Shown here one piece after another: positions 5,391 through 50,737 of a stretch of 54,320 nucleotides of DNA; the first letter of the stretch is position 1, and each line of letters begins with the position of its first letter. The position numbers were made by a program, and so were the translations under genes. The stretch lies in the UHGV virus genome UHGV-1522278. One strand, given 5' to 3'. The DNA comes from a virus. The notes below the pieces were generated by a model that was not told where the DNA came from, ran no database searches, and saw only the letters and a list, made by a program, of their open reading frames with translations.

Positions 5391-6509
5391 TTACAAAATG
5401 GAAAATTCAGGGTAATAAACAAAGCGCCCGATCTCACCATGATCCGGGCTGTAGATGATAACCGCCGCCAGGCGACGCGACCGCCATCCGCCATTAGTCG
5501 AATAAGCATCCTTACCGGCTAACGTGCCGTGGTGCTCAACAATTCCGAGCGACGTTTCAACGACTGATTGATGGTGCAGATGTCCAGTGTGCGCGTAAAC
5601 AGCAACCGACTTCCCGAAATCCTCGCGCCAGTCAGAGACGCAAGCAGCCAATAAATTTTCAGGCTTTTTGATAGTGTGCCCGTGGTGGTAAGCGAGAAAT
5701 GTTTTACCGTACTGCGTGTGGTGAACGATAGCAGGTGACACATCAACCGTCACACGCGGTTCATCTTCGTAAAAAGCCGCCAGCGCCGCACGTAACCAGA
5801 TCATCCCTGACTGATCGTGATTGCCTGATAACACCTGGATTTCAATATCCTTATGATTTAACAACATCTTACCTACAGCACGCCGGACAGACCTGATCGC
5901 TACATAGACAAGTTTTGCATAACGACTATCTTGATCAAGAATGTGCCCGCTTGTTGGCGTAACCGGGACCATTCCATCAGAATGAAGCAGGTCGCCACCT
6001 AGAAGCAAAACGGCTTTTTCAGACATCGGCGCGGCGCCCACAGCGTAGTCAAAGAAGTCATTCAACACGCGCTCAGCGATCCCGGTGTCGTAGCTCTCGC
6101 CGCATTCTGCTTTGTGAGCAAGTGCGCCGATATGCAGATCAAATACCGGATAAAGGGCCAGGCTTTTTTGGAAATCAATTTCCGGCACTGGCACGGCCTC
6201 CGCGCGTGGTATTTCTTCCGTGAATGCGTCGCGGGCCGATTCCATTAGCTGTTCCATTTCATCGCGGTCACGGGCTGTTTTAATCCAGCGCATGATCACA
6301 TTGCCGTTCTTATCGACTAGCAACGACTCGCCATTGACGCCAAAACCAGGCGCGCGGCGTGTTGACAATAAACCGCGTTTCGCCAGTTTTGCCCCCAGGC
6401 GCTCTACGTTGCGTTTTGACATGCCGTACTTTTCAGCGATCTGCTTGTACGTTAAACCGTTGTTATATTCAGCGATCAATTGCTCATCGCTTATCTTTCT
6501 TTGTGACAT
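5391..6509 (-). CDS. HTH domain fused to a calcineurin-like metallophosphoesterase
   Basis: 372 aa; N-terminal HTH (LTYKQIAEKYGMSKRNVERL); phosphoesterase motifs DLH, GGDLLH, GNHD, HHGH, GHLHH. Confidence 0.8.
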   Translation of the reverse strand: MSQRKISDEQLIAEYNNGLTYKQIAEKYGMSKRNVERLGAKLAKRGLLSTRRAPGFGVNGESLLVDKNGNVIMRWIKTARDRDEMEQLMESARDAFTEEIPRAEAVPVPEIDFQKSLALYPVFDLHIGALAHKAECGESYDTGIAERVLNDFFDYAVGAAPMSEKAVLLLGGDLLHSDGMVPVTPTSGHILDQDSRYAKLVYVAIRSVRRAVGKMLLNHKDIEIQVLSGNHDQSGMIWLRAALAAFYEDEPRVTVDVSPAIVHHTQYGKTFLAYHHGHTIKKPENLLAACVSDWREDFGKSVAVYAHTGHLHHQSVVETSLGIVEHHGTLAGKDAYSTNGGWRSRRLAAVIIYSPDHGEIGRFVYYPEFSIL

Positions 6510-7651: not shown

Positions 7652-8704
7652 TCAAAGAGCGCCACATCGTGTATCACGTAGCGTTTTTGGTTTAAGCAGG
7701 AAATCAAGTGTCGCAGTGAAGCCATCGCCGAAGTAAAAATCTGAAGCATTGTTTTTGAACGTTTCAAAGTAGGCGACAAAGCCGTTAATGCTTTTGTCTT
7801 TCAGGTAGTCAGTGAACGCATAAATCTTGCGTTCAAGATCCCGATCCAGTTCGGCAGGTGGCAACATGCCATCAAACGTGCTGTTAAATGCCTCCACTAC
7901 GTCGGCAGCGTTTGCAGTGGCTGACAGTTTGCGCCATTTTTCAGCATCAGCCAGATACCCATCAAATTTAGTCACCCGGCAAATGTTTATAGGCTTAGGT
8001 GTTCCACCACGGCTACGCCATTGCGTTAAAGCCCACTCAATCACTAATGTGATCTCATCCTCCGTATACGCTTTACGTGTTTTTGTTTCTGTCAGTAGTT
8101 CTACGAATGGCTTAGCATCACGACACTTGCATCCTGCCTTGTCGTTGTAGAAGGCCAGACAACGCAACGCCGCTTCGTTTACGCCATCCTGACTGACCGT
8201 TTTTTGTTCATTTTCGACAATACACGAAGTGTATATATCTTTTTCTCTTTCTTCTTCTTCTTCTAATTCTAATTCATGACCCTTTCCTGACCCTGTCATG
8301 ACCCTATCATGACCTTTTTGTGTTTGATTGATTAGCTTTTCTAATTTTAATTGCTCCTTAGCTGTGTTTATTGCTGCCCTGTATGCGCTTTTAGAAGTCA
8401 TTGATTGGTCAAGCCTTTTCAATAACTTTAAACAAGTTATGTGGCCCTGAGAACATTCGAATAAACCAATTTCGATAAAGTATTTCATCATTTCTTCTAT
8501 GCGCTTTTCAGTAGATCCTACGTTTCGCGCAATGATTCTTGCATCGTGTCGAAGGTCAAAATTAAGGTTGTGCTGATCTACGTCGTAAGTTATCAGTTCG
8601 AGGCAATACCAATAAAGACCGTAACCTTCCAGGCCATAATCTAATAAAACGTTTTGAAGTTTTTCATCGCGGTTCGCATCGCTATCATGCTTAAACCACT
8701 TCAT
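7652..8704 (-). CDS. phage replisome organiser / replication initiation protein (DnaD-like N-terminal domain)
   Basis: N-terminus MKWFKHDSDANRDEKL...GYGLYWYCLELI resembles the Lin1244-type replisome organiser domain; start 8704 chosen for GGAGGA spacing and ATGA coupling. Confidence 0.75.
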   Translation of the reverse strand: MKWFKHDSDANRDEKLQNVLLDYGLEGYGLYWYCLELITYDVDQHNLNFDLRHDARIIARNVGSTEKRIEEMMKYFIEIGLFECSQGHITCLKLLKRLDQSMTSKSAYRAAINTAKEQLKLEKLINQTQKGHDRVMTGSGKGHELELEEEEEREKDIYTSCIVENEQKTVSQDGVNEAALRCLAFYNDKAGCKCRDAKPFVELLTETKTRKAYTEDEITLVIEWALTQWRSRGGTPKPINICRVTKFDGYLADAEKWRKLSATANAADVVEAFNSTFDGMLPPAELDRDLERKIYAFTDYLKDKSINGFVAYFETFKNNASDFYFGDGFTATLDFLLKPKTLRDTRCGAL

Positions 8705-8706
8705 AA

Positions 8707-8961
8707 TCATTCCTCCGGCAACATAACTACATAGACACCACTAAACGCATCAATACGGCAAACAAACCCTTTGCTAATTAATGCGGCGAAGGCATCATGT
8801 ACCGTATGAACAGGAAGTTCACACATTTTTGCTACTTCTTCGCGTGATACGCTTGTCCGCCCCTGGCTATCCGCCGTCTCAGCAAGGGCGATCAAAACTA
8901 GTTTTTGAATCGGGCTGTTAAGTTTTACGTTCCATGCTTTGCTAATTATGTTCATGCTCAT
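8707..8961 (-). CDS. HTH DNA-binding protein, first gene of the leftward early operon
   Basis: 84 aa from the ATG at 8961 with AGGAGA RBS; HTH-like segment SREEVAKMCELPVHTVHDAF. Confidence 0.6.
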   Translation of the reverse strand: MSMNIISKAWNVKLNSPIQKLVLIALAETADSQGRTSVSREEVAKMCELPVHTVHDAFAALISKGFVCRIDAFSGVYVVMLPEE

Positions 8962-9070
8962 CGTGTTTTCTCCTATGGTTAGAGTGAACGCGCTGGCGGG
9001 CATCCAATTAGCATTAGATAGCAGTGACTGACCGCTCAACAGATCCCGCCGTTGCGTGATATTTGTTTTT

Positions 9071-9102
9071 CGCTTCGCAGCGACACCGGATTTTTAAAGA
9101 GC
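9071..9102 (-). promoter_or_regulatory. nut-like site (boxA-like GCUCUUUAA plus hairpin) in the leftward early leader
   Basis: minus-strand reading AGCTCTTTAAAAA then 11 nt then CGCTGCGAAGCG (4-5 bp stem, GCGA loop). Confidence 0.35.
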
Positions 9103-9143
9103 TTTTAAGGTATGTTCCTTTTGTGCTTTCCATTATCTTTTTT

Positions 9144-9159
9144 CTTGCATCCTTGCAAG
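9144..9159. promoter_or_regulatory. operator-like palindrome CTTGCA-tcct-TGCAAG in the divergent immunity region
   Basis: perfect 6-bp inverted half-sites; further half-sites CTGCAAG at 9176-9182 and CTTGCA at 9232-9237. Confidence 0.45.
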
Positions 9160-9267
9160 TATGGACTTACCTTGTCTGCAAGTTTACAGAATGGCGTTAA
9201 CAGGTCAAGGATTGAAAAATACATTTTGTGACTTGCATCAAACTTTTTTAGCTTATAGGGTAGCGAC

Positions 9268-9915
9268 ATGAAAACAAAATGGTATGACTTGGCAAAACAA
9301 CTCATGCGGGCGCAGGGCATGAGTCAGGATTCACTGGCTGATCTCATGGGGATAACAAAAGGCGGCTTGTCGCACTGGCTGAACGGTCGCCGTGAGCCAA
9401 ATCTTGAAGATATTGCGCGGATCATGCGGGCGCTTGGGCGTCGGCAATTCACTGTCACACATGATGGGATGGTCATCGATGATTCTGTTTCTAACACGTT
9501 ACCGGGAGCGCCACCGCGTGATTTAGGCAGTTACCCGGTTGTTGACTGGAAGGACGCAGTAAACAATATGGAAGATGCAAGGCGATCAACATTACCACAC
9601 GTTACAACTAGCGTTATTTGTTCTGATGATAGTTATTGGCTGGTAGCTAAAGGCGAATCAATGAACGCTCCGCAAGGATTGAGTATACCAGCGGGGACGA
9701 TGATACTTGTCGATCCGCACGCGCCAGCTATTGACGGCAAACTAGTTATAGCCCAACTGGAGGAAGGGCAAACTCCTACGTTTAAACAGCTTGTTATTGA
9801 TGGAGGTCAAAGGCTTTTACGTTCACTCAATCCGCTGTATCCACCGATCCCTATGAATCCAGAATCTAAAATCATAGGTGTGGTAGTGGATGCGAAGATC
9901 GTAAACCTGCCATAA
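9268..9915 (+). CDS. cI-like repressor (HTH plus S24 LexA-type peptidase domain)
   Basis: 215 aa; N-terminal HTH (SQDSLADLMGITKGGLSHWLNG); C-terminal S24 motifs GESM and a downstream Lys. Confidence 0.88.
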   Translation: MKTKWYDLAKQLMRAQGMSQDSLADLMGITKGGLSHWLNGRREPNLEDIARIMRALGRRQFTVTHDGMVIDDSVSNTLPGAPPRDLGSYPVVDWKDAVNNMEDARRSTLPHVTTSVICSDDSYWLVAKGESMNAPQGLSIPAGTMILVDPHAPAIDGKLVIAQLEEGQTPTFKQLVIDGGQRLLRSLNPLYPPIPMNPESKIIGVVVDAKIVNLP

Positions 9916-9920
9916 ACACT

Positions 9921-9946
9921 AGCCGCCGAATGGCGGCTTTTCTTTG
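9921..9946 (+). terminator. rho-independent terminator after the repressor gene
   Basis: AGCCGCC-gaat-GGCGGCT followed by TTTTCTTT. Confidence 0.6.
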
Positions 9947-10037
9947 CTAAAAAACACCAAAACGTAAACAGAAAACCATGTTTATCATTTAAATATCAAG
10001 TGCTTATAAAATTTTATAAAAAAGTATACAAAATGTG

Positions 10038-10066
10038 TTGACTCGTGTTTTTACGGGGCGTATATT
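10038..10066 (+). promoter_or_regulatory. near-consensus sigma70 promoter (TTGACT - 17 nt - TATATT) flanked by an inverted repeat
   Basis: -35 at 10038-10043, -10 at 10061-10066; TTGACTCG (10038-10045) and CGAGTCAA (10069-10076) are exact reverse complements. Confidence 0.55.
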
Positions 10067-10108
10067 TCGAGTCAAAAGGAGGAAGCAAGGCAGGGAAAGA
10101 AGGTTACT

Positions 10109-10146
10109 TGCTCTTTAATAATCTGGTCAGCCGCTGGAAGTGCGGC
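10109..10146 (+). promoter_or_regulatory. nut-like site: rrn-type boxA (TGCTCTTTAATAA) plus boxB-like hairpin
   Basis: boxA-like 10109-10121; hairpin GCCGC-tggaagt-GCGGC at 10130-10146, in the leader of the rightward early transcript. Confidence 0.45.
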
Positions 10147-10202
10147 AATTAACGAAGATGATTTTTTATTAAGTATCATCAAGGATATAAGGAGATCAGA
10201 TC

Positions 10203-10493
10203 ATGACAGTTACAATCATGTATGGCAAATGTGACAGTAAACTGAATGCCAGGGAACGCAGAAGAATAAAAAGAGAAAACGAAAGAAAATCATCACCTGC
10301 AATTAATAAAACAGACAATGTGGATAAAGCTATTCGCTTTGCAAACGAGGAAAGATGCAAACCAAATAGCATTAAAGAACGTCGCAAAGGAGCAGTAAAA
10401 TGGTATACGGAAAATGAAAGCGGCAACTACTACCACGCAACGCAACCACGCCATTTAGGGGAAAAACCACTTGATAAAGTCCGTTACCATTAA
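10203..10493 (+). CDS. Arg-rich small protein, candidate N-like antiterminator
   Basis: 96 aa, strong RBS AGGAGA; N-terminal Arg-rich motif NARERRRIKRENERK; first gene after the boxA/boxB-like site. Confidence 0.5.
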   Translation: MTVTIMYGKCDSKLNARERRRIKRENERKSSPAINKTDNVDKAIRFANEERCKPNSIKERRKGAVKWYTENESGNYYHATQPRHLGEKPLDKVRYH

Positions 10494-10523
10494 TACAAAA
10501 TGTAAACAGCCGGAGGTGACGTT

Positions 10524-10646
10524 ATGGTTATTCAGGCGCTCCAATTCAAACTGGCGGTAGCGGAAATGCTTCATGATGCCGAAATGTGGAGCGCCGCGAA
10601 TAAAGCCTTATATATAGTGTTAACAGCGAAGGAGATTAAAGAGTGA
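10524..10646 (+). CDS. small ORF (40 aa)
   Basis: GGAGGTG RBS; stop overlaps the erf GTG start (GTGA). Confidence 0.35.
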   Translation: MVIQALQFKLAVAEMLHDAEMWSAANKALYIVLTAKEIKE

Positions 10647-11284
10647 AAACAGAGTTACACAAAAAACTGTGGACGATTCAGCAAACGCTGAACGCGCCGA
10701 AAAATCAGCGTAATAATTTCGGTGGATACAATTACAGGTCGGCGGAGGATATTTTAGAAGCGGTCAAACCACTGCTTCAAAGTATTACGCTGACTGTAAG
10801 CGATGAAATTGTCCTGATCGGCAATCGCTATTATGTGAAAGCCACTGCGACACTAAGCGACGGTGAGGATGAAATAGCGGTAACGGCTTACGCCAGGGAG
10901 GAAGAAAGCAAGAAGGGAATGGACGCAAGCCAGTTAACTGGCGCGACATCAAGTTACGCGCGTAAATACGCTTTGAACGGGTTGTTCTGCATTGATGACG
11001 CAAAAGATCCTGATACTGATGCTTACGCGAAACAGACAAATCAACAGCCACGCCAGCAGAAAAACCCACCAAAACAACAACCACAGCAGCAGAAAGCGCC
11101 TCCAAATCCTGATGAGGTGTTAGCGCGTTTCTGTGATGCGGCAGCGAAAGCGCAGGACGCTAACAAATTGCGCGAGATCTTCTGGAAGTGCTGGAAGCTA
11201 CTGCCTAAAGATTCAGAGCAGCAACAGAAAGCCAAAGACGTTTATGACATTAGATTAAAAGAGCTTAACGGGGAGATCAGTTAA
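10643..11284 (+). CDS. erf: Erf-family single-strand annealing protein
   Basis: 213 aa; strong similarity to P22 Erf N-terminal domain (LNAPKNQ..FG.Y.YRS.EDILE.VKPLL...DEIVLIG.RYYVKATAT). Confidence 0.88.
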   Translation: MKTELHKKLWTIQQTLNAPKNQRNNFGGYNYRSAEDILEAVKPLLQSITLTVSDEIVLIGNRYYVKATATLSDGEDEIAVTAYAREEESKKGMDASQLTGATSSYARKYALNGLFCIDDAKDPDTDAYAKQTNQQPRQQKNPPKQQPQQQKAPPNPDEVLARFCDAAAKAQDANKLREIFWKCWKLLPKDSEQQQKAKDVYDIRLKELNGEIS

Positions 11285-13877: not shown

Positions 13878-13917
13878 GTTGCGATCGCATAAATATACGT
13901 TTTGTGTTGCGATCGCA
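13878..13917. promoter_or_regulatory. two copies of the palindromic motif GTTGCGATCGCA
   Basis: copies at 13878-13889 and 13906-13917, each with a central GATC, in a 99-bp intergenic gap. Confidence 0.35.
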
Positions 13918-13969
13918 AATCCGTTTTGTGAACTGAAATCAAAAGGTTTACGGCGCGGAGGAAAACAAG

Positions 13970-16670: not shown

Positions 16671-17449
16671 GCAAGGGTAAACACTGGTTAAATAATTGGC
16701 TTAGAAGTTGGGTTGTGTGGTCGCTGTACGACGGCAGCGGGTACGCCGTTAAAGATTGGGCGGAAGCAGGATATAAGTGCTATTGCTTCAACTATGACGG
16801 CGCAAATCACGGCGATTATGAAGGCGTTAAAATCATTCATCCGAATATTGAATACGTTAACGTGTGGATTGACAGCCATTTCCTGGTAATGTTCTCCCCT
16901 GAATTGTCTGTTTATCCAGAGCCTGACATTATCTTGGGTTTTCCTCCATGCGACGATCTCGCCGTGTCTGGCGCTCGCTGGTTCGCTGATAAACGGAAAA
17001 AAGATCCTGACTTCCAGGTGAAGGCGGCGAATAGCGCAAAACTGGTAGAAAAACTGGCGGATATGCACAACGTTCCGTGGATGGTGGAAAATCCGGTGGG
17101 AGCACTGTCAACGCTATGGCGCAAACCTGATTTTATCTTCAACCCGTGCGCTTACGGTGGCTACCTGCCTGAAGATGACAAACATCCTGCTTTCCCTGAT
17201 GTTTACCCGCCGCGAGACGCGTACACGAAGAAAACTTGTATTTGGTGCGGCAACGGATTTAAACAGCCGCTTTTTAGACCTGTAGATCTTAACTCTGGTG
17301 ATAACCCTGGGTGGGCGAAAACCGGAGGAAGGACGAAACGAACAAAGATGATCCGCTCACTAACGCCGCGTGGCTTTGCCCGTGCTGTATTCCTGGCTAA
17401 CGACCTGGCCATCAATCGTGCTACGCTCAACCGCGTTTTACCGGACTGA
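16667..17449 (+). CDS. C5-cytosine-methyltransferase-like protein (divergent, short)
   Basis: 260 aa; motif I-like LYDGSGY, PC motif GFPPCDDLAVSG (PCD rather than PCQ), ENV-like MVENPVG; no obvious target-recognition domain. Confidence 0.55.
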   Translation: MSKGKHWLNNWLRSWVVWSLYDGSGYAVKDWAEAGYKCYCFNYDGANHGDYEGVKIIHPNIEYVNVWIDSHFLVMFSPELSVYPEPDIILGFPPCDDLAVSGARWFADKRKKDPDFQVKAANSAKLVEKLADMHNVPWMVENPVGALSTLWRKPDFIFNPCAYGGYLPEDDKHPAFPDVYPPRDAYTKKTCIWCGNGFKQPLFRPVDLNSGDNPGWAKTGGRTKRTKMIRSLTPRGFARAVFLANDLAINRATLNRVLPD

Positions 17450-17608
17450 AATTTACAAAATGGCGTCATTGCGTGATGTGGATCACATAATGGCGCTTTT
17501 TACCTTGTTCTGACGTATCCATTTTGTATACTTCAAACAAGCAAAATGCTCTTTAAAAATCCGGCAGCGCTGAAATGCGTAGAAATCACCTGAAAAGGAG
17601 AGAGCATT

Positions 17609-22531: not shown

Positions 22532-22563
22532 AAATGGCATTGTTTCGGCAGTGCCATTTTGTT
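22532..22563 (+). terminator. candidate rho-independent terminator
   Basis: AAATGGCA...TGCCATTT stem with a long loop, followed by TTTTGTT. Confidence 0.35.
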
Positions 22564-37850: not shown

Positions 37851-38007
37851 TTTCTTATCCTCTTTTGCTTCCTCCGGTTAATCCGGCCTTTTAAGTCCCT
37901 TCGCTCTATCCCTTTTCTTTATCTTCTTTATACAAAATGTACTCGTTGAAGTGAAGCCATTTTGTATAAAATAGAGACGTGGATCACATTTCGTATGAGG
38001 TTAAATC

Positions 38008-41106: not shown

Positions 41107-41275
41107 ATTGGCCTCCTTTGTTGGTGCTGCTTTCTCTTCTTGATTTCTATATACATCTTGTCACGTCATGTGTGAAGCCGTTTTGTAAACTGGGTATAAT
41201 TCTTGTGACAAAGTTCTCATTTTTCGCGTAGAAGCGCGTAAAGATGTATGCAATATGTAACTTATAGGGGGAATC

Positions 41276-42785: not shown

Positions 42786-42913
42786 TTCACACCTCCGCGC
42801 CATTTTGTTAACCATGCTTCCTTTTGAGTACAATATACATATTGTAAAAAACGCGATCAACCGTTTTGGCATGATTTAGCGTGATTTAGATCACAAAATG
42901 ACAAGGTGATAAA

Positions 42914-50560: not shown

Positions 50561-50737
50561 TTTTGAACCCTCATTCTTGTTTGTTAATCCGGTTCACCCG
50601 GTGACTTAAATATCCGGCAAAACCACATTTCGTATATTGACACAGATCAACAAATACATTTTGTGTAAGCAGAAAATGCAACACAGATCACAAAATGGTA
50701 GAATTATTCCGTTAATTAACAAAATGGAGTCATCGAG

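Follow-up and report, generated by a model that had tools for sequence, protein, structure and literature searches.

Results

Gene order and identity of the locus

The window, by which we mean the whole stretch of viral DNA analyzed in this study (54,320 nucleotides), is, judging from its sequence, a temperate coliphage of the mEp021 family (mEpimmI). The region 8900-10700 is 92-97% identical to that of mEp021, mEp010, mEp013, mEp044, mEp515, and mEp554 as well as of about 35 E. coli prophages. In this region, the cI-like rep gene is followed by an intrinsic terminator, a promoter, a leader with the nutR1 site, gp17, a kil-like ORF, erf (ERF), and ssb (SSB) (Table 1), and on the other side of rep, the minus strand carries the genes for a replication protein and an 84-aa winged-helix protein and then a control region of 300 bp. 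The rep terminator is annotated likewise in mEp021, mEp013, and other relatives. Just after this terminator, furthermore, we noticed a block (ACACCAAAACGTAAACAGAAAAC, 9953-9976) that is nearly invariant in 14 relatives, one or two loci differing by one to three bases; it resembles an operator half (CGTA) and is nearly repeated at 10496-10509. The segment after the block is variable, yet short inverted repeats are kept there in many relatives.

For comparison, 13 annotated loci and 42 loci from IMG/VR were used. The promoter was contained in 54 loci, which represent 22 distinct promoter-region variants (23 when the flanks are also counted). All of the 42 IMG/VR loci have one common immunity region, and no heteroimmune relative was found when GTDB genomes were searched via gp17. 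It has been described that Rep021 supplied from a plasmid blocks all six mEp phages, that the mEp phage as a whole is non-lambdoid with three nut sites, and that gp17 is an N-like antiterminator acting at nutL, nutR1, and nutR2 (PMC11893012). The same paper names no promoters or operators for the mEp phages (PMC11893012), and a genomic paper published in 2025 considers that Rep may recognize operators unlike those of lambda. Also in the rest of the accessible literature, we found no names for promoters or operators of mEpimmI.

The gp17 protein in the window is 92-100% identical to gp17 of mEp021 and its relatives, has an arginine-rich N-terminus, contains the sequence RERRRIKRENERK, and gives a weak match to N_peptide in Pfam. 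Upstream of gp17, the nutR1 site, which was described at this place in mEp021 (PMC11893012, citing Valencia-Toxqui 2023), has a boxA (TGCTCTTTAATAA at 10109-10121) near the rrn/lambda consensus, and a twin boxA is found on the minus strand at 9102-9085. The locus is thus equipped with boxA, a boxB hairpin, and a small arginine-rich protein encoded downstream, namely the parts of an N-type antitermination unit. When the region 8900-10700 was searched against Rfam with a permissive E-value threshold, no family was hit.

As for the leader itself, the hairpin near its 5' end forms at one and the same place in both leader types with different sequences (AGCAAG/CUUGCU in the short and GGAAG/CUUCC in the long form), and in the short form, the beginning of boxA takes part in the pairing. 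An insertion of 215 bp, which encodes the 37-aa gp16, is present in about half of the relatives (loci L001, L002, and L006-L011) between a first boxA-like sequence (GCACTTTAAAAATCAGG) and the nutR1 boxA; the short leader of the window (10100-10125) has the appearance of a deletion from one boxA copy to the other that left a hybrid boxA. In the nutR2 region (17440-17570), a long hairpin terminator (GGCGTCATTGCGTGATGTGGATCACATAATGGCGC and a T run) lies between two inverted box copies and is followed by a boxA (GCTCTTTAAAAATCCGG).

Table 1. Positions of the features at the gp17 promoter and around rep in the window
Feature	Position	Strand	Description
Rep-type site	9182-9198	.	Core TACAGAATGGC at 9185-9195; overlaps the leftward -10 TAAACT (9186-9181)
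Rep-type site	9217-9233	.	Core TACATTTTGTG at 9220-9230; leftward -35 on one side, candidate maintenance promoter on the other
rep (cI-like)	9268-9915		HTH_3 and Peptidase_S24 domains
rep intrinsic terminator	9921-9938	+	7-bp stem with 6 G-C pairs, T run; delimits the promoter region on its upstream side
Proposed Rep operator O1, GTATACAAAATGTGTTG	10024-10040	.	Core TACAAAATGTG at 10027-10037; adjoins the -35 and overlaps its first 3 nt (TTG)
-35 hexamer TTGACT	10038-10043	+	Invariant in 54 relatives
Left arm of the inverted repeat, TTGACTCG	10038-10045	.	-35 hexamer and 2 spacer bases
Proposed Rep operator O2, TTTTACGGGGCGTATAT	10049-10065	.	Core TACGGGGCGTA at 10052-10062; final TA forms the first 2 nt of the -10
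-10 hexamer TATATT	10061-10066	+	Invariant in 54 relatives
Right arm of the inverted repeat, CGAGTCAA	10068-10075	.	Reverse complement of TTGACTCG; discriminator and predicted start-site region
Leader 5'-proximal hairpin (GGAGGAAGCAAGG...CUUGCUCUU)	10079-10116	+	
nutR1	10109-10146	+	boxA TGCTCTTTAATAATC at 10109-10123; boxB GCCGC-TGGAAGT-GCGGC at 10130-10146
gp17	10203-10493	+	N-like antiterminator, first gene of the operon
Perfect TACAAAATGTA site	10491-10507	.	Immediately past the stop codon of gp17 and 467 bp downstream of O1; same place in mEp021

Conserved elements of the gp17 promoter

A near-consensus promoter was reported here in a first-pass annotation of this DNA, and our analysis bears this out: TTGACT-17-TATATT matches the sigma-70 consensus at 10 of 12 positions, the best match within 8600-10800. 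The sequence from 10024 to 10079 reads GTATACAAAATGTG-TTGACT-CGTGTTTTTACGGGGCG-TATATT-TCGAGTCAAAAGG, and across the 54 loci there is no variation in the hexamers or in their 17-bp spacing. This promoter (10038-10066) is the rightward early promoter and the functional counterpart of lambda PL/PR; from the position of its -10 hexamer, the gp17 transcript is predicted to start near 10073-10074.

Conservation is not confined to the hexamers. The block directly upstream of the -35 (AAAAAAGTATACAAAATG) is invariant among the variants, and the 3' half of the spacer (ACGGGGCG) is conserved as well, whereas its 5' half varies freely in the 22 variants. Each of the two conserved stretches belongs to a 17-bp pseudo-palindrome that we propose as an operator for Rep, namely O1 and O2 (Table 1). 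When the number of variants differing was averaged over the columns of each element, it was 0 of 22 for both the -35 and the -10, 0.5 for O1, and 1.3 for O2, while the free part of the spacer gave 5.3.

O1 matches the TACA-N3-TGTR site type of homologous repressors, and its core is invariant in the 22 variants but for the last 2 nt. In most relatives, the core is TACAAAATGGA with the right half TGGA instead of TGTR, and O1 is hence a weak dyad. The O2 core TACGGGGCGTA, on the other hand, is a perfect TACG/CGTA dyad; in relatives, it is altered nearly exclusively where the site type is degenerate, at Y, R, and N (TACG, CACG, CACA, and the central triplet, with one C-to-A change), and the counts by column in the 22 variants show the same. 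Conservation of the G+C-rich half of the spacer is therefore explained by the site type of O2. The centers of O1 (10032) and O2 (10057) are 25 bp apart, and as far as can be read from the aligned sequences, both sites are conserved in all 54 relatives.

The motif was recognized through a genome-wide excess of ACAAAAYGK and through the homologous phages described below. Indeed, ACAAAAYGK occurs 20 times in the window (3.8 +/- 2.0 expected), a five-fold excess that none of 100 shuffles reached, and its copies are at orthologous places in mEp021. Likewise, TACAWWWTGKR gives 11 matches against 1.26 expected, again with 0/100 shuffles reaching 11. When a one-mismatch variant was added (ACARAAYGK), 12 of the 21 matches fell in the intergenic 9.8% of the window, which is what remains after a crude gene call (P ~1e-7). 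Scoring the core only discriminated weakly over the genome (37 matches vs 25 expected); the A/T-rich center and the flanks matter. An unbiased search for 14-20-mers common to both control regions found nothing above shuffles, and a full-text literature search for the site sequence returned unrelated papers only. Fits of the conserved box to the Fis and IHF consensus were also tried and dropped as unsupported pattern matches.

Rep and its homologs in other phages

Both domains of Rep can be aligned with those of lambda cI (3bdn, E = 2.7e-19). When residues 1-71 of Rep were used as a tblastn query, homologs of the DNA-binding domain were revealed: over these 71 residues, the identity is 58% in ENT1 (Enterobacter), 55% in Klebsiella phage ST340-VIM1phi10.1 (hereafter Kp phi10.1), 53-54% in C2 of phage L, 46% in Salmonella phage SPN9CC, and 43-45% in cI of Stx2 II, VT2-Sakai, and related Stx phages. 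In the alignment, the recognition helix T-[KQ]-G-x-x-x-H-W-L is invariant, with T30, G32, H36, W37, and L38 fixed.

The operators of these homologous phages are taken here from database annotations ("putative") or pattern matches. The record of Stx2 II annotates three putative 17-bp operators, AAATACAATATGTACTT, AAATACACATTGTGCAT, and CAGTACAGAGCGTAATA, and six operators of 17 bp each are ascribed to VT2-Sakai and to Stx2 I (PMC10742460). By scanning with TAC(A/G)-N3-(T/C)GT(A/G), we found exactly three sites in the cI-cro gap of each of five phages; in Stx2 II, ENT1, Kp phi10.1, and SPN9CC, these are placed at -80, -47, and -21 nt relative to the start codon of cI, and in phage L, the three pattern-matched sites are in the c2-cro gap. 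The leftward control region of phage L, furthermore, has two sites of this type including AATACAAAATGTACTTA, and TACAAAATGTA is also present there. Two more sites 25 bp apart were found downstream of the repressor gene in Kp phi10.1.

The arrangement at the gp17 promoter is shared with some of these phages. The common module consists of an 11-bp core, a -35 of TTGAYY, 8-9 nt, and another 11-bp core whose final TA starts the -10, and it is found in the window, mEp021 PR, phage L PR, and the promoter that follows cI in Kp phi10.1. The position of O1 is that of the operator beside TTGACT in phage L PR, and the O1 core of most relatives is identical to the second operator of Kp phi10.1.

The box beside the -35 (TATACAAAATG) could alternatively be a proximal UP-element subsite, or a site for a host factor or another phage regulator, with Rep binding elsewhere. 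The 9-mer ACAAAATGG at -46 to -38 is indeed where a proximal UP subsite would lie, and six or seven of its nine positions fit the consensus of this subsite, which is reportedly AAAAAARNR; also, further copies of the box precede several weak -35 hexamers, again 22 nt away from a (C/T)GTATAWW -10 region. Nonetheless, TACAAAATGGA is the 11-mer at the second operator of the Klebsiella phage and TACAAAATGTA is in the leftward control region of phage L, and unlike UP elements, the motif is present three times per control region at fixed offsets in the homologous phages. Conservation extends also to O2 (TACGGGGCGTA), which is G+C-rich and within the spacer and cannot function as a UP element. We thus consider this explanation unlikely, while a part of the O1 conservation could come from contacts of the RNA polymerase alpha subunit (as in a UP element) and not from Rep.

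Sites of the same type in other regions of the window

Upstream of rep, the sites at 9182-9198 and 9217-9233 (Table 1) belong to the same type as O1 and O2, and the four cores in the window can be written together as TAC(A/G)-N3-(T/C)G(T/G)N. The first of these two cores is 82 nt from the rep start, as compared with 80 nt for the first operator in Stx2 II, ENT1, Kp phi10.1, and SPN9CC, and the site at 9217-9233 is about 43-48 nt upstream of the start, as compared with 47 nt for the second operator in the four phages; in relatives, the latter site changes at Y and R positions only. The third operator position (about -21) is degenerate in the window. The leftward promoter in this control region is TTGACC-16-TAAACT on the minus strand.

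Two different operator specificities in one immunity region had been suggested in the first-pass annotation from the difference between the inverted repeat at the gp17 promoter and a CTTGCA/TGCAAG palindrome at 9144-9159. This palindrome is real (CTTGCA-TCCT-TGCAAG) and is located between PL and nutL, within the leftward leader, with arms that drift without compensation. Two specificities are, however, not needed, given that one site type is found at both control regions. We also noticed that the part of 9144-9159 invariant in relatives is not the palindrome but a direct repeat, TTGC-N4-TTGC. A lambda-CII-like reading of this direct repeat was dropped as an unsupported pattern match, as was a CRP-like site at 9226-9241.

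As for the promoter from which rep would be transcribed in a lysogen, the candidate maintenance promoter picked by our scan (TTAACA-17-TACATT, 9197-9225) is probably not the real one. By analogy to the annotation of Stx2 II, TTGCAT-17-TAGGGT (9233-9261) would be the maintenance promoter and would produce a leaderless rep mRNA from 9268; the cI mRNA of lambda from PRM is leaderless. TTGCAT-17-TAGGGT ends 6 nt before the rep ATG, and in relatives, TAGGGT and the bases that follow vary only at a single position (C/T) immediately preceding the ATG.

We saw no cro-like gene in the stretch from the leftward promoter to the replication genes (8707-9267) or beside rep. The first leftward gene, which encodes the 84-aa winged-helix protein, is represented by three or more unrelated alleles in phages that have one and the same Rep, and this protein is therefore unlikely to be the counterpart of Cro.

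Outside the immunity region, TACAAAATGTA and its close variants were noticed in intergenic gaps at 13896-13930, 17455-17528, 22554-22562, 37931-37966, 41152-41186, 42836-42846, and 50624-50727 and also at 5392-5402. Several of these distant sites are paired 24-25 bp apart with the second one fused to a (C/T)GTATAWW -10 region, which is the module of the gp17 promoter, and several of the gaps separate minus-strand "moron" cassettes from tail genes. From the sequences of these sites, Rep may control many promoters across the prophage. The perfect site directly after gp17 (10491-10507), judged in the same way, might serve Rep as an auxiliary site, either to form a loop or to block transcription.

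The 8-bp inverted repeat around the promoter

In the first-pass annotation, the promoter was described as bracketed by a perfect 8-bp inverted repeat, at which a dimeric protein would occlude the promoter. The exact repeat is present, while its gap is 22 bp and not 23 bp and its end is at 10075 and not 10076. Its occurrence is close to the chance level in the window and looks coincidental: exact inverted pairs of 8 bp number 60 in the window at gaps of 0-40 bp, as compared with 43 +/- 8 in Markov shuffles, and 29 at gaps of 15-30 bp, as compared with 16.5 +/- 4.9. Outside the two arms, TTGACTCG does not occur in the 54-kb window (2 matches vs 1.5 expected), and the half-site is missing from the other Rep-controlled region.

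Among the 22 variants, all eight pairs are kept in ten, seven in seven, six in four, and five in one, and the 8/8 repeat is present in 36 of the 54 loci. Position 7 of the left arm shows all of C, A, T, and G, and position 8 is G, T, or A. Position 4 of the right arm is G/A polymorphic in at least 9 of the 22 variants, the most variable position downstream of the -10; its partner is the invariant C of TTGAC, and the G/A change breaks this one pair in about half of the variants. No compensatory change in the arms was found across the 22 variants. The right arm lies within a conserved block, GCGA(G/A)TCAAAGGA. Since the arms degrade without compensation among phages that share the repressor, the repeat is most likely not the operator of the common repressor.

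The repeat would be a genuine operator if dimeric or tetrameric Rep, the 84-aa winged-helix protein, or a Cro-like protein clamped the -35 and the start site together. Its exactness in the window, 8/8 pairing in 10/22 variants and 36/54 loci, and the placement of the arms where a bound protein would block RNA polymerase are consistent with this idea, and with no obvious cro beside rep, a missing regulator is conceivable. The arms are, however, 30 bp apart from center to center, only about one third of which is spanned by an HTH dimer of the lambda cI type; operators of lambda cI are 17 bp. The lack of compensation, the four bases at arm position 7, the unpairing G/A change, the near-chance count, and a half-site found nowhere else in 54 kb are also against an operator, and no such repeat is seen in the homologous modules of phage L and Kp phi10.1. 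Furthermore, the 84-aa gene is mosaic within one immunity group and hence does not co-vary with the site. mEp021, mEp044, and mEp010 keep only 6/8 pairs and mEp515 keeps 7/8, but all four are sensitive to Rep021 (PMC11893012). Taken together, an operator function of the repeat is very unlikely. It is likewise very unlikely that the repeat serves a regulator distinct from Rep (for example, a Cro-like protein) as a second operator, which would make it a second, independent layer of control with the 6/8 and 7/8 variants as weaker alleles. Weak selection for the repeat, given 8/8 pairing in 36/54 loci, is a weak possibility.

We find least plausible of all that the repeat acts as an RNA hairpin in read-through from rep or as a DNA cruciform, for instance to provide additional termination or attenuation before nutR1: RNA of 10030-10085 does fold into the 8-bp stem (-12.6 kcal/mol, z = -2.2), but a transcript from the gp17 promoter would not include the left arm, the loop is 22 nt with no U run after the stem, 6 of 200 shuffles fold equally well, the stem decays in relatives without compensation, and no match to Rfam was obtained.

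The repeat would instead be a by-product, with the -35 and two unconstrained spacer bases between O1 and O2 happening to complement the discriminator and start region. The complementarity of the arms would then be a coincidence, partly eroded in the family and present in the window and in about half of the relatives. As for the proposed occlusion, this strong early promoter in the immunity region is almost certainly shut off by an occluding DNA-binding repressor, but an action via the 8-bp arms is not supported, given that they are not conserved, their half-site is not recurrent, and their spacing is 30 bp.

Discussion

Comparison with known systems

The gp17 promoter resembles PR/OR and PL/OL of lambda in that a strong sigma-70 early promoter is overlapped by adjacent 17-bp pseudo-palindromes about 24-25 bp apart; also, Rep is a true homolog of cI with HTH_3 and Peptidase_S24, and transcription first passes through a nut site with boxA and boxB and then the gene for an arginine-rich protein similar to N (PMC11893012). 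In contrast to lambda, nonetheless, the operator sequence of the window is unrelated to TATCACCGCCAGTGGTA of lambda, only two sites are evident per promoter, no cro is visible between the leftward promoter and nutL, and the genome is non-lambdoid.

More similar in the site itself are the c2-cro region of phage L (X94331) and Stx2 II/VT2-Sakai, which share with the window the signature of the recognition helix and the TACR-N3-YGTR site type; phage L PR, furthermore, has the same interleaving of operator, -35, operator, and -10. Phage L and Stx2 II have three sites between cI and cro together with a cro gene, however, whereas two clear sites are found upstream of rep in the window. In Kp phi10.1, the promoter downstream of the LexA-family repressor gene has its -35 (TTGATC) flanked by two sites 25 bp apart, TCCATTTTGTA and TACGTTATGTA, and recombination genes follow on the same strand as in the window. 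Unlike in the window, no nut/N module is present in the stretch examined, and there is no inverted repeat around the promoter.

A model of how the repeat could have worked as an operator is offered by the P2-type C repressor: two 8-bp direct repeats about 22 bp apart flank the -10 of Pe and are bound by one oligomer, with the short repeats on either side of core promoter elements. The repeats of P2 are direct, however, and its repressor is small and lacks S24, whereas the repeat in the window is inverted with its centers 30 bp apart, is not conserved, and is accompanied by a repressor of the lambda cI type.

Proposed control of the gp17 promoter

At the gp17 promoter, a repressor homologous to cI, 17-bp pseudo-palindromes with a spacing of 25 bp, their overlap with the -35 and the -10, and the same site type upstream of rep are thus found together. 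We consider, with a probability of roughly 80%, that this is an early promoter controlled by Rep through the 17-bp operators O1 and O2 and that the inverted repeat is a by-product. Most likely, the promoter is silenced in the lysogen by the lambda-cI-like Rep. Two Rep dimers would then be bound on O1 and O2, both of the type TAC(A/G)-N3-(T/C)GT(A/G), probably in a cooperative manner through their C-terminal domains as in lambda cI, of which pairwise cooperative binding takes place at sites 24-25 bp apart. Bound Rep would block recognition of the -35 and the -10, so that nutR1, gp17, and the recombination genes would be kept silent. Once repression is lifted, the transcript would comprise the leader with its 5' hairpin and nutR1, gp17, the kil-like gene, erf, and ssb.

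On the other side of rep, the repressor on 9182-9198 would overlap the -10 of the leftward promoter. If TTGCAT-17-TAGGGT is the maintenance promoter, furthermore, the site at 9217-9233 would be, in terms of the layout, at the position from which lambda cI activates PRM.

In conclusion, the phages of mEpimmI, a common group of human-gut coliphages, are now provided with a concrete and testable set of Rep operators, TAC(A/G)-N3-(T/C)GT(A/G), with two sites per early promoter. A misleading lead, namely the inverted repeat and the two specificities read from it, is removed, which is useful for annotation and for experiments on immunity. While not conceptually new, the analysis assigns the gp17 promoter to a module that phage L and a Klebsiella phage also have.
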